The position numbers were made by a program, and so were the translations under genes. From Desulfarculia bacterium (lineage in GTDB: Bacteria > Desulfobacterota > Desulfarculia > G963662305): 64,000 nucleotides of DNA. The stretch lies in assembly GCA_963662305.1 (NCBI GenBank), contig OY759352.1, positions 2,013,620 through 2,077,619 of the forward strand, read 5' to 3'. The notes beneath the pieces were generated by a model. It searched no databases. It saw only the letters and a program-made list of their open reading frames with translations, and was not told the DNA's origin. Positions 4,052-6,901 of the stretch are shown one piece after another (within the stretch, counting starts at the first letter, position 1; each line of letters opens with the position of its first letter).

Positions 4052-6901
4052 TCACCCCTTAATTTCGTCATTAAAATATTGGATTGCCCTCTTAGTTTCC
4101 AAATCCTCTACATGAATTATATTTCTAATTCTATCTGCTGCTCTTTCAGCTCTAAGGCGCCCCAACCCATAAATTGCCCTCACTCTAATTATGTTGCTAA
4201 AATCGTCTAAGCACTCTATCAACCCTCCAATCGCAGTCTCACCACCTAACTCAGACAATGCGTATACAACTCTCTCGCGGATGTCCTCGTCTGGATGATA
4301 AACAAATTTTATTAACTCTTCGGCACTAGAAGGTTCACCTATGTTTTGTAAGGCAACAATTACGTTACATAAGCTTAGCCCAGAAAATTCATTGAGACAT
4401 TTGTGCAATGCCTGAACAGCAGAAGCCTGTTTCATATTTCCCAATGCAGATATCGCTGCGTCCCTTGCATCCTGACTCTCGTCATTATCTATAAAGTCAA
4501 TCAAAAGGTTAACAACTTCATCGCTATCAAAATATGAAAGCCTCTCTATGGCTTTTATTTTTGTCGAAGTGTTGCCGTCAACCAGACTTTCTATTAAGTT
4601 ATTTCTTGAAACAGTAGCCTCCTGCCTTTGCAATGCTATAAAAGCAGCCTCCCTTACGTTTGATGCGGTATCATTCAAAAGCGTGCTAAGCGCTGACTCA
4701 ACATTTTTGGAGGCAATTTTCCCAACACAATAACATGCGGACTCCCTGACATAACTGATGCTATCAGACAATCCCTCTATATAAACGTTTATATATTTCT
4801 CATCAACGTGCTCGCCTAAAACCTCGAAAACAGATTCTCTAACAAAAGAATTAGGATCATCCGAGCATTTTGATATAGCGTCAACAGTAGAGGAGTCTCC
4901 AAAGAAACCTAAAGCGATAATCGCTCTCTTTCTTAATCTAGCATCAGAATGGTTAAGCATTCCGATCAATAATTCTCTAGCCTCAGAGGTTTTGCTTTTC
5001 CCAAGCAGTGAAATACCCTGAAGCTTAACTAAAACCTCTTCATCCTCAAGAGCCAAGCGTCCATAATCAAATAGTTGCTTTGGCTGAAAACAATAGACCA
5101 TGCCCGCATAAACAGCAGATCTAATCAATACTTCCGGATCAGATGTTAGCTTATGCAAAATTGTTGAGATTTCTTCTGGAAAAAAATTGAGAGAATATTT
5201 TAGAAATCCCCACCTAATGTTCACTCGTACATTAATATCAGATATCAATTTAAATATATGCTTTTTTATTTTGGAAGGCATAGACTCTTTAACCAAGCTA
5301 TAAATGTCAGCATCGAATAAATTTTTGTCAATAGAACCTTTCTTAAAATAGTCGTATAAGTATTCAAACGATTCTAAACTATTGTGAATCAAAAACATAA
5401 ATACTTCAGCTTTCTTTAAGTACTTTCTATTGTGCTCCAACAAATGCTTAATGAAGATATTTGCAATTTTATCGAAGGGTATGTTCTTAAAGCGTCTAAT
5501 GATATCCCTGTTTTCACTTCTCGACCCACATTCTTTTAGACTGAGTGCAAGAAAAATAGTCTCTACTACGGTTAACTCAATCTCATTTATCCAGGGTTCA
5601 ACAACTTCCAATCGATCCTTTCCCATAAAAATGTCGTAACGCACCCACTGTGTAACACCTTCAGCGACCAAGTCATGAACACCTTGAATGCGGTCAGCGG
5701 CAAGGTATCTACTCTTTACAATTTCAATCATTGCATCATGACATAACATATATGCTGACTTTTTAACCGGGAGAACAAGTTTTACACCAATTAGAGAATC
5801 TATCAACTCATTAACATATCCCTGGTCATACCCCTCTAATTGGCTCACCAAGTCTGATAAATTTACACATCTGGTTGTTCCTTTTGTACCGCACAAAAAT
5901 TTTAGAACCTTCAAAAGTTCCCCTCTCTGGTAAGCGGGAAAAGCTACCAGCTTTTTATCTAAAAAGCTTCCATATATACCATCAACTCTCCCTAATCTTT
6001 CATAGGCATCAAATCCAGTGATTTCTTTGCCTACAATCTCATCAAAAACAGCGCTGCAAACAAGTTGTAATTCTAATGGATTTACTTCTCTATTTATACT
6101 CAAGTCTCTAAAAATATGTGTCCTTAATTTTTCATCGAAAATAATCCCGCTTTTTTTTGAGCAATATTCGAAAAGGTCATTACACGCATCGTGACTAATT
6201 CCTGTTAGACTAAATATTTCACTGAATAATCTTGGTAAGTTTTTCAAAAATCCTACCAGCTTATAGAGATATGTATCCCTAACACTTAAAATAACATTTA
6301 CTTTAAAAATTGATTGATATGCTAAAAGGCACAATGAAAATAATATTTTATCAAAACTATTTATATTAGGTGAATCAATTATGTTTTCCACTTGGTCATA
6401 AATAAATATAACATTACTTTCTATCTGATAGCCTTCAAAAAGCCTGTAAATATTTGTGTCAAACAATTGCTTATCTTCATTTGAAAGTTTCAAATCTACA
6501 GAAACGGTATTAATTGTTTGATTTATATCAACTTTCTTTGATGACAAAATATCGCCAACACTCTGTTCGTGTGTACCATTTTCAGCATAGCTTTTTCGTT
6601 TAACTCCACTAACTTCAACACTTGATTTTATTGATTCAACTAAGATATCAACTGTTTGTCCAGGAAGGGCTTCCTCATATATAACTACGCTGCCGTTCTC
6701 AACTAAATATGGACACAGACAGGCTTTAAAAAAAGAAGACTTCCCAACACCAAGAGGTCCAGAAAAAATTTGAACACTGTTTTCAGAATCATCTAAATGA
6801 CTACAGAAGGACTTCAAATCTTCATTTCGGCCAACACATAACCATGAGTTAGCAGATGAAATCGTACGAAAGGGAGAAAACGGATTGCTCTTATTGCTCA
6901 C
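4052..6901 (-). CDS. Large P-loop NTPase (STAND/NACHT-like) with C-terminal HEAT/PBS-lyase-type repeats
   Basis: 949 aa; Walker A GPLGVGKSS near residue 50, Walker B-like IFIYDQVE; C-terminal ~300 aa of repeated ~30-aa units (VRESxxxxLG, NVREAAFIAL, DIRERVVYAL, IIRVRAIYGL) typical of HEAT-like repeats; only ~40 aa precede the P-loop. Confidence 0.7.
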   Translation of the reverse strand: MSNKSNPFSPFRTISSANSWLCVGRNEDLKSFCSHLDDSENSVQIFSGPLGVGKSSFFKACLCPYLVENGSVVIYEEALPGQTVDILVESIKSSVEVSGVKRKSYAENGTHEQSVGDILSSKKVDINQTINTVSVDLKLSNEDKQLFDTNIYRLFEGYQIESNVIFIYDQVENIIDSPNINSFDKILFSLCLLAYQSIFKVNVILSVRDTYLYKLVGFLKNLPRLFSEIFSLTGISHDACNDLFEYCSKKSGIIFDEKLRTHIFRDLSINREVNPLELQLVCSAVFDEIVGKEITGFDAYERLGRVDGIYGSFLDKKLVAFPAYQRGELLKVLKFLCGTKGTTRCVNLSDLVSQLEGYDQGYVNELIDSLIGVKLVLPVKKSAYMLCHDAMIEIVKSRYLAADRIQGVHDLVAEGVTQWVRYDIFMGKDRLEVVEPWINEIELTVVETIFLALSLKECGSRSENRDIIRRFKNIPFDKIANIFIKHLLEHNRKYLKKAEVFMFLIHNSLESFEYLYDYFKKGSIDKNLFDADIYSLVKESMPSKIKKHIFKLISDINVRVNIRWGFLKYSLNFFPEEISTILHKLTSDPEVLIRSAVYAGMVYCFQPKQLFDYGRLALEDEEVLVKLQGISLLGKSKTSEARELLIGMLNHSDARLRKRAIIALGFFGDSSTVDAISKCSDDPNSFVRESVFEVLGEHVDEKYINVYIEGLSDSISYVRESACYCVGKIASKNVESALSTLLNDTASNVREAAFIALQRQEATVSRNNLIESLVDGNTSTKIKAIERLSYFDSDEVVNLLIDFIDNDESQDARDAAISALGNMKQASAVQALHKCLNEFSGLSLCNVIVALQNIGEPSSAEELIKFVYHPDEDIRERVVYALSELGGETAIGGLIECLDDFSNIIRVRAIYGLGRLRAERAADRIRNIIHVEDLETKRAIQYFNDEIKG

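Follow-up and report, generated by a model that had tools for sequence, protein, structure and literature searches.

The 949-amino-acid protein encoded on the minus strand at 4052..6901 of the window (a 64,000-nucleotide stretch of contig OY759352.1 from a Desulfarculia bacterium) is, as judged from its sequence, a genuine STAND-type (nSTAND1) ATPase with HEAT repeats. On balance we regard it as the ATPase at the centre of a four-component conflict cassette that is conserved and mobile and most likely acts in anti-phage abortive infection, with an effector that would be supplied in trans and coupled to the ATPase by a shared sequence motif. The cassette would comprise a radical S-adenosylmethionine (SAM) enzyme, the nSTAND1-HEAT nucleoside triphosphatase (NTPase), a TehB-like methyltransferase and the separately encoded effector. 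STAND/NLR (nucleotide-binding leucine-rich repeat) receptors are central to innate immunity in every domain of life, and to our knowledge only a few systems have shown how a receptor lacking a fused effector relays its signal. The cassette provides a compact and testable case, with a 16-residue coupling element within the ATPase domain and an effector module that is swapped among relatives.

The Pfam model nSTAND1 (PF20703) matched residues 15-393 of the protein (E 3.1e-14, 53.9 bits, cut-off 27.1), and residues ~617-935 (4097..5053, minus strand) were covered by HEAT_2 (E 1.1e-42), HEAT (E 4.1e-22) and HEAT_PBS (E 1.2e-18). This agrees with an earlier reading of the same DNA (the original prediction), which had described a STAND-like NTPase with HEAT/PBS-type repeats in its C-terminal third. 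The Walker A motif GPLGVGKS occupies residues 48-55 (6737..6760, minus strand), about 50 residues from the N-terminus as had been stated, and the Walker B motif IFIYDQVE residues 165-172 (6386..6409, minus strand). In the orthologue alignment A1, G48, G51, G53 and K54 are invariant and D169, Q170 and E172 are invariant or nearly so; together with Arg R208 and the winged-helix His H388, both intact in the protein, these nSTAND1 hallmarks are invariant or at least 90% conserved in alignments A1 and A6.

The 47 residues ahead of Walker A correspond to the beginning of the nSTAND1 profile (from position 9 on), and scans against Pfam, NCBIfam and PADLOC detected no further domain, neither an N-terminal catalytic domain nor a helix-turn-helix (HTH). 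The claim that no effector is fused to the N-terminus is thus borne out. Among the orthologues, here called the STAND-HEAT family, 42-49 residues precede Walker A, versus a median of 284 in 40 other nSTAND1 proteins. A profile comparison that included the antiviral Avs families had also been proposed; it placed the protein above the nSTAND1 cut-off, but none of the Avs hidden Markov models (HMMs) of PADLOC-DB matched, and the only hits there were of HEAT type (HEAT-ARM_XIII and similar). Since it has no fused effector and no Avs model match, the STAND-HEAT protein is not an Avs protein. Matches to the retron-XIII HEAT-ARM, to mad2 and mad8 of MADS and to NblB/CpcE were rejected as generic domain similarity.

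The proposed structural check gave a consistent picture. An AlphaFold2 model built from a 47-sequence alignment has a mean predicted local distance difference test (pLDDT) score of 83, with a folded NTPase and winged helix followed by an alpha-solenoid from about residue 428, and residues 610-949 exceed a pLDDT of 90. In a Foldseek comparison of the full model with the PDB, HEAT proteins dominate (best matches alphaRep and PP2A-A) and the ATPase part was recognised only as AAA+-like (Cdc6/Orc1). A PDB sequence search with the NTPase half gave no significant match.

The GTG start at 6901 is supported by the orthologues, which begin where the long open reading frame (ORF) does and share the start M..NPFxPF. 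The public gene call P0001 (813 amino acids, NCBI/ENA) begins at Leu137, so that it has no P-loop and both Walker A and the shared motif are cut off; the 949-amino-acid version was found only in an ENA metagenome contig (P0003). The public annotation is herewith corrected.

Between Walker A and Walker B the family carries additional sequence. From the Walker A Lys to the Walker B Asp, members of the STAND-HEAT family count 104-117 residues, compared with a median of 74 for 38 further nSTAND1 proteins; by this excess, the insert that holds the shared motif is specific to the family and about 40 residues long. In the window protein the insert region spans residues 98-150 (6452..6610, minus strand) and is predicted to be disordered: residues 104-140 are unstructured in the AlphaFold2 model (pLDDT <50), with the surrounding NTPase modelled confidently. 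Three other nSTAND1 proteins (P0033, P0035 and P0041) are likewise longer at this site, where an EAD7 domain (PF19960, E 1e-15 to 1e-20) is inserted; two of the three also have an N-terminal SIR2_2 and two a C-terminal HATPase_c domain. EAD7 is an adaptor that couples NTPases to separately encoded effectors by like-with-like pairing (PMC8195603), and the Walker A-Walker B site is therefore an established adaptor location in nSTAND1 proteins. EAD7 is also listed in the literature among the partners of the amyloid motif BASS11. No Pfam EAD match was found in any protein of the window.

The motif in the insert reads QxVGxIxxSxxVxIxQ, or more fully Q-x-[VI]-G-x-[IV]-x-x-S-x-x-[VI]-x-[IV]-x-Q. Each STAND orthologue has one copy, and two copies with a period of 23-24 residues are present near the N-terminus of a partner protein encoded in the same cassette. 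In the window, motif alignment and HMM place the STAND copy, QSVGDILSSKKVDINQ, at residues 113-128 (6518..6565, minus strand), with Q113 and Q128 invariant in A1. The partner gene is an ORF at 2984..3448 (minus strand), which had not been listed in the original prediction. Its true start is likely the ATG at 3406, which is preceded by the ribosome-binding site GAGGAG at 3414..3419 and gives a protein of 140 amino acids. Copy 1, QYIGNITNSKDINIKQ, lies at 3341..3388 and copy 2, QTVEDIHNSQKIEVIQ, at 3272..3319 (both minus strand), followed by a predicted transmembrane hairpin of two hydrophobic helices at 3077..3235 (minus strand; 19-residue Kyte-Doolittle peaks of 2.45 and 2.9).

A motif HMM of 16 columns, built from the nine STAND copies only to avoid circularity, was run over the 6,993 six-frame ORFs of 113 sequences, 1.1 million residues in total. 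The top matches outside the training set were exactly the small partner proteins, with two hits each at E 1.5e-7 to 3e-4 (the window protein at E 6.9e-6). The partner in the truncated contigs L088/L089 came next (E 0.066), and the best unrelated ORF had an E of 0.41. Instead of a membrane protein, this locus has a CHAT (caspase-like) protein, whose N-terminus bears the copies EQSIDLIKGCKSIKVLQ and IQSAGRVQKSEDILIHQ. Since a CHAT protease in this one clade takes the place of the transmembrane-hairpin protein encoded in the window and at most loci, the effector domain has been swapped and the motif retained. The first and the last Gln are present in all 25 copies (9 STAND, 16 effector), including the STAND copy QSVGSISESGGVRVSQ of locus L087.

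Compared with background the motif is enriched in Gln (4.0x), Ser (2.1x), Ile (2.0x), Val (1.8x) and Gly (1.3x), Asn is not enriched (1.1x), Leu is depleted (0.23x) and Pro is absent. It thereby matches the composition bias reported for amyloid signalling motifs, which are enriched in Q/N/G/V/I and depleted in P/L (bioRxiv 10.1101/2020.01.06.895854). The motif is taken to be beta-prone. The small membrane protein is probably the missing trans effector. The expectation that the effector would come in trans from neighbouring genes thus remains the best reading, but the likeliest candidate is this previously unlisted protein (2984..3406/3448) with its two motif copies.

The genes concerned form a compact unit. 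Five genes on the minus strand, overlapping or abutting each other, follow in the order radical SAM, STAND, TehB-like methyltransferase, small protein and TIM barrel, and the end of the radical-SAM gene and the GTG start of the STAND gene share 11 nt. They are carried by a low-GC island (700..8650; 35.5% GC versus 62.6% for 10600-64000), and a tyrosine integrase is encoded at the edge of the island (9049..10242, plus strand; Pfam Phage_integrase, E 2.2e-34). No att-like direct repeats flanking 700..8650 and no tRNA at its border were found, and scans for promoters and terminators gave nothing better than shuffled sequence.

Orthologues of the STAND protein were recovered solely via an exhaustive HMM search with residues 1-610 against 1.84 billion representatives, which gave 853 matches at E<=1e-3, nearly all of them nSTAND1 proteins with long N-terminal extensions. 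The full-length orthologues P0016, P0017, P0040 and P0116 (941-954 amino acids) and the fragments P0012 and P0084 align from residue 1 and keep the whole STAND-HEAT architecture at 21-24% identity. K-mer searches with the STAND protein and with an alignment of N-terminal halves returned only the protein itself and generic nSTAND1 proteins; a JGI metagenome scan with the STAND alignment yielded one orthologue, a variant of P0017, besides unrelated HEAT proteins, and a PLSDB plasmid search with the STAND protein nothing.

The contigs of the orthologues share the cassette, and the orthology of the neighbours was confirmed by all-against-all BLAST. Gene order is kept in seven independent loci for which DNA is available (the window, L002, L005, L007, L008, L085 and L087), either as radical SAM, small protein, STAND-HEAT and methyltransferase or with the effector after the methyltransferase; in the orthologue contigs the protein encoded between the radical-SAM and STAND genes has 162-179 amino acids. 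The truncated contigs L088/L089 have an eighth full-length counterpart for which no sequence is at hand. Their clade is the closest to the window, whose methyltransferase is 58% identical to P0178 and whose STAND N-terminus is 34% identical to P0084. When close homologues of the methyltransferase (293-326 bits) were looked up, all three, in L085/L086 (a Thermoanaerobaculia metagenome-assembled genome), L087 and L088/L089, lay directly downstream of an nSTAND1-HEAT gene, which makes the methyltransferase the best marker of the cassette. Its subfamily has ~336 members. In the co-occurrence analysis that had been proposed, the radical-SAM and methyltransferase genes recur across the cassette loci, but the TIM-barrel gene does not.

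The surroundings of the cassettes are consistent with mobility and defence. In L087 the cassette has as direct neighbours a DNA cytosine methylase and a complete Gabija system (10156..13822; GajA 852 bits, GajB 760 bits), with a resolvase and an integrase on its flanks, and the cassette of L007 adjoins AlpA- and DUF5681-type mobile-element genes. These contexts, together with the low-GC island and integrase of the window, support reading the cassette as a defence system. Additional upstream genes were seen in some loci, namely mutually homologous methyltransferase-like proteins of 292-295 amino acids in L008 (4276..5154) and L087 (2326..3213; E 1e-87) and, in L005 (555..1832), a 425-amino-acid protein with a DPPW motif typical of amino-methyltransferases. 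Neither the STAND nor the radical-SAM orthologues are represented by a model in PADLOC-DB v2, and the L085 orthologue had no significant hit there. The cassette was described nowhere in full-text literature searches or in the most relevant surveys, including papers of the Aravind group and a 2026 STAND survey. The four-gene cassette is rare and apparently undescribed so far.

From these observations a mechanism can be proposed. A trigger would be sensed by the helical/HEAT solenoid, or via the product of the radical-SAM/methyltransferase pair, and the NTPase would then oligomerise in an ATP-dependent manner. Oligomerisation would bring the insert motifs together, and the clustered motifs would recruit or template the twin motifs of the effector, similar to the coupling in NWD2/HET-S, BASS/Bell and Bab/Agp or by EAD adaptors. 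The clustered effector would disrupt the membrane or, in the CHAT clade, cleave its targets, so that the cell dies or arrests. By analogy with HET-s/NWD2 and BASS we infer that the motif is the adaptor which couples the oligomerised ATPase to the effector in trans.

Several points weigh against this proposal. Oligomerisation, motif-motif interaction, toxicity and phage defence are all deduced from sequences and structural models. The motif lies inside the NTPase and is N-terminal on the effector, whereas all NLR amyloid motifs described so far stand at the N-terminus of the receptor and at the C-terminus of the effector, and it has 16 residues (repeat period 23-24) compared with the usual 20-25. 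The strictly conserved radical-SAM and methyltransferase genes are given no necessary role by the model. Many invariant positions fall in the HEAT repeats, an uncommon pattern for a protein that senses fast-evolving phage proteins; the repeat consensus accounts for part of it. The number of distinct loci is only about eight. A radical-SAM pattern scan of 185,579 GTDB species representatives found no true cassette and yielded only two related radical-SAM clades, a sister clade linked to uracil phosphoribosyltransferase (UPRTase)-like genes and one of 342-amino-acid proteins, and searches of the IMG/VR viral contigs with the methyltransferase and radical-SAM alignments found no member.

The coupling step has a serious alternative, which we consider rather unlikely as a whole, and which makes the HEAT solenoid the receiver of the motif. 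The STAND copy would dock on the solenoid and autoinhibit the protein in cis, the effector copies would bind in trans, being tethered or competing, and activation would release or reposition the effector with no beta assembly of motif on motif. HEAT and alphaRep solenoids are indeed peptide- and protein-binding scaffolds, the many family-invariant residues in the HEAT repeats would fit a conserved ligand such as the invariant motif, and the flexible insert loop is long enough to reach another domain. However, much of the HEAT conservation is the generic PBS-HEAT consensus (D....VR..A), EAD7 at the same nSTAND1 site pairs like-with-like (PMC8195603), and the ratio of one receptor copy to two effector copies, as well as the compositional bias, fits beta-arch motifs.

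Two further alternatives concern the two enzymes. The radical-SAM enzyme (6891..8120, minus strand; 409 amino acids) is the conserved first gene of the cassette, with CxxxCxxC at C54/C58/C61, a GGGEP motif and a weak Pfam Radical_SAM match. Its orthologues in L002, L007 and L008 are 27-32% identical (E 1e-43 to 1e-48). The best PDB match of its profile is the peptide epimerase YydG (E 8e-9 over ~200 residues), and in NCBIfam it reaches E 4.3e-9 with rSAM_yydG, at 36 bits against a cut-off of 300, and 26 bits against a cut-off of 180 with viperin_w_prok; the PADLOC model pVip (E 8.9e-6) covers only the N-terminal core. All family-level scores are far under the curated NCBIfam cut-offs. As C54, C58 and C61 are the only invariant cysteines in alignment A3, the enzyme has no SPASM or twitch auxiliary cluster. 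The methyltransferase (3418..4071, minus strand; 217 amino acids), directly downstream of the STAND gene, is a TehB-like class I SAM methyltransferase (Pfam TehB E 6.4e-23, 81.6 bits against a cut-off of 20.4; PDB TehB E 2.5e-21). It is 44-49% identical to its cassette orthologues and scores 77-93 bits with the NCBIfam TehB equivalogs, which have cut-offs of 218-303.

Outside the cassette these two families occur in other settings. In the nearest paralogous radical-SAM clade (~200 bits; Streptomyces, other Actinomycetota and a Sandaracinaceae metagenome-assembled genome) a UPRTase-like gene always comes next, genes for an amidohydrolase, an asparagine-synthase-like protein, a phosphatase or TauD are nearby, and a motif-bearing protein is absent. 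The bona fide cassette of L005 has a UPRTase-methyltransferase fusion in place of the TehB-like enzyme, homologous to a fusion in L017 (E 3.9e-77). L109 (5830..11209) encodes a TatD-radical-SAM fusion, a radical SAM, a TehB-like methyltransferase, a second radical SAM and an APH-type kinase, with an adjoining Pif1 helicase; the last-named radical SAM scores 107 bits with the cassette radical-SAM HMM and a STAND gene is absent, from which it follows that the methyltransferase/radical-SAM pair also travels as a STAND-free module. In L110-L112 (genes at ~3300-10000) a member of the same TehB-like methyltransferase subfamily stands in an integrase-linked cluster that runs Dam-type methylase, DndB, HARE-HTH/kinase-like protein, methyltransferase, SIR2_2, Ham1-like NTP pyrophosphatase. 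One version of this cluster was found on more than 80 contigs; it is probably a separate defence or modification system, and literature searches gave nothing on the combination of HARE-HTH, Ham1, SIR2 and DndB.

Some details of the related loci may be added. In L009-L022 and L035 the radical-SAM gene encodes about 430 amino acids (~7800-9200), is related to the cassette enzyme over its full length and is followed by the UPRTase-like gene (~9150-9800); in L021 an amidohydrolase also follows, and asparagine-synthase-like and histidine-phosphatase genes lie upstream. This actinomycete cluster may serve nucleoside-type biosynthesis. A 342-amino-acid radical-SAM relative (21% identity, 90% coverage) was found in L113, on the conjugative IncFII plasmid NZ_CP114775.1 of Raoultella planticola (71401-86501); its operon also encodes a WYL-domain regulator, hypothetical proteins and a PHP-type phosphatase, and two DUF262 genes adjoin it. 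The same clade occurs in Acinetobacter, Hydrogenophaga and Rhodoferax (L023-L030).

Given the UPRTase, Ham1, kinase and SIR2 contexts, the core cysteines as the only conserved ones and the family scores under the cut-offs, the pair most likely makes or modifies a nucleotide-like small molecule, be it a signal, an antiviral nucleotide or a self-mark. Its chemistry could reveal a new antiviral or signalling metabolite.

A different role for the enzymes would be to act on the motif itself. The radical-SAM enzyme, possibly with the methyltransferase, would post-translationally modify the copies of the STAND protein and the small protein alike, by Val/Ile epimerisation as in YydG, Gln methylation or a cross-link, and activity, or the maturation of a peptide-like effector, would be governed by this modification. 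Among solved structures YydG is the best match to the enzyme, and the motif offers an invariant Gln at each end and conserved Val/Ile positions. A precedent is found in the vWA-MoxR conflict systems, where a radical-SAM enzyme is predicted to modify a standalone peptide effector (PMC7159879). However, the enzyme conserves only the three CxxxCxxC cysteines, has no SPASM or twitch cluster and gives family scores far under the curated cut-offs. In addition, the sister-clade genes always precede a UPRTase-like gene with no motif protein nearby, the orthologous enzyme of L005 is paired with a UPRTase-methyltransferase fusion, and the methyltransferase subfamily recurs with Ham1, kinases and SIR2, again with no motif protein. 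Motif modification is accordingly judged improbable.

The original prediction had counted the radical-SAM enzyme and the methyltransferase among the candidate effectors. In its full form this would mean that both are the effector arm, that the STAND protein triggers the production of a viperin-like modified and methylated nucleotide which blocks phage replication, and that the membrane protein is accessory. Both enzymes are conserved and translationally coupled to the STAND protein, their contexts are nucleotide-related (UPRTase neighbours and fusions, Ham1 NTP pyrophosphatase, kinases, SIR2), the pair occurs STAND-free in L109, and weak matches to the viperin, MoaA and QueE cores were obtained. 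Left unexplained, however, is a motif common only to the STAND protein and a variable transmembrane-hairpin or CHAT partner, which are typical cell-killing effectors; moreover, the viperin model stays well below its cut-off and no interaction surface between STAND protein and enzymes is evident. We therefore hold an enzymatic effector arm to be distinctly unlikely, noting that it can coexist with coupling to the membrane protein. The two enzymes are conserved partners; their contexts suggest small-molecule or nucleotide chemistry, and they look less like a terminal effector.

That the protein is no immune factor at all, but a housekeeping regulator, a chaperone-like ATPase for cofactor or pigment assembly like the PBS-lyase-type HEAT proteins, or a transcription regulator, is very improbable: the HEAT_PBS, NblB and CpcE-like matches and the OmpR-type DNA-binding domain of the distant nSTAND1 relative P0002 are outweighed by NblB and CpcE scores of only 84 and 44 bits (cut-offs 300 and 330), by the lack of any HTH or DNA-binding domain in the STAND-HEAT family in Pfam and NCBIfam, by the patchy, rare distribution and the foreign-GC island next to an integrase, and by the Gabija and mobile-element genes and the CHAT and transmembrane partners of the cassettes.

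The proposal of a motif-coupled trans effector could be extended by a more speculative and doubtful idea, in which a prion-like, beta-templating motif within the P-loop domain drives interchangeable effectors and a previously unknown nucleotide-like product of the radical-SAM/methyltransferase pair, or a modification of the motif by the pair, gates the assembly. If true, bacterial NLR-like immunity would have a new signalling architecture, a two-module switch of small molecule and templated assembly.

The fifth gene of the minus-strand unit (2058..2987) encodes a xylose-isomerase-like TIM-barrel protein of 309 amino acids (Pfam AP_endonuc_2, E 8.7e-14), which is translationally coupled by a 4-nt overlap. 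It had been named as a further effector candidate, a suggestion that did not hold: no homologue was found in any related locus, and being specific to the window locus it was rejected as a core part of the cassette and is considered an accessory gene. At the far end of the island an ORF of 261 amino acids (850..1635, minus strand) has no match in Pfam, NCBIfam or PADLOC and no homologue in the related loci. Elsewhere the window has a cobalamin riboswitch and genes for ABC transporters, CobN-type chelatases and TonB-dependent receptors, which mark the host as a high-GC diderm bacterium. The riboswitch (41255..41440, minus strand; 110 bits) lies upstream of a TonB-dependent receptor; genes for two CobN-type chelatases, for a ChlI/ChlD-like AAA-vWA protein and for ABC transporters are nearby, as is a second TonB receptor. 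The region, including 18143..28943 and 38982..41153, looks like a cluster for corrinoid or metal uptake and chelation. ARAGORN reported a 97-nt tRNA-Arg(GCG) at 32505..32601 (minus strand) within an ORF for a 749-amino-acid AAA-vWA protein (30763..33012), which is a probable false positive because of its unusual length and its location inside a coding region.

Among known systems the STAND protein is closest in its core to the nSTAND1 clade named by Kaur et al. 2021 (PMC8195603), with which it shares a family model score above threshold, Walker A, a DQxE Walker B, the Arg, the winged-helix His and a C-terminal repeat array. Most members of that clade have 100-650 residues of effector or adaptor before Walker A, as against the 42-49 residues here, and the STAND-HEAT family differs further in its unique motif insert of ~40 residues, its HEAT repeats and the constant linkage to the radical-SAM and methyltransferase genes. 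Avs proteins likewise are STAND ATPases with a C-terminal helical-repeat sensor that are found in mobile defence islands and presumably oligomerise on a trigger. However, Avs is a single polypeptide with a fused N-terminal nuclease, protease or other effector, whereas here a separate effector and two enzymes are encoded. The neighbouring radical-SAM enzyme shares the CxxxCxxC and GGGEP core with YydG and prokaryotic viperin, but it lacks the auxiliary-cluster cysteines, scores far under the cut-offs of both families, and its nearest paralogous clade is linked to UPRTase and not to peptides.

In the way the effector would be coupled, the cassette resembles the EAD systems and NLR amyloid signalling. 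EAD7-inserted nSTAND1 proteins have their adaptor where the STAND-HEAT family has its motif, between Walker A and Walker B, and a shared module links the NTPase to separate effectors. EAD7 is a folded helical domain of ~60 residues, whereas the motif described here has 16 beta-prone residues in a disordered loop and no Pfam EAD match. With the amyloid systems (fungal HET-S/NWD2 with HRAM, bacterial BASS/Bell pairs and Bab/Agp of E. coli with BASS11) it shares a short, Q/G/V/I-rich, Pro-free motif in the products of adjacent genes and the occurrence in defence-island or mobile gene contexts. As with HRAM of the HET-s type, the receptor has one copy and the effector two, and as with BASS the effectors are membrane-targeting or CHAT proteins, CHAT, TIR and hydrolase effectors having been reported for BASS/Bell pairs. 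The differences are substantial: the motif is internal in the P-loop domain of the receptor and N-terminal, within the first ~60 residues, on the effector; its conserved core has 16 residues instead of 20-25; in place of a Bell or HeLo domain the effector has a simple transmembrane hairpin; and the receptor is an nSTAND1-HEAT protein, not an NB-ARC or NACHT protein with TPR or WD repeats, with two enzymes as its obligatory partners.

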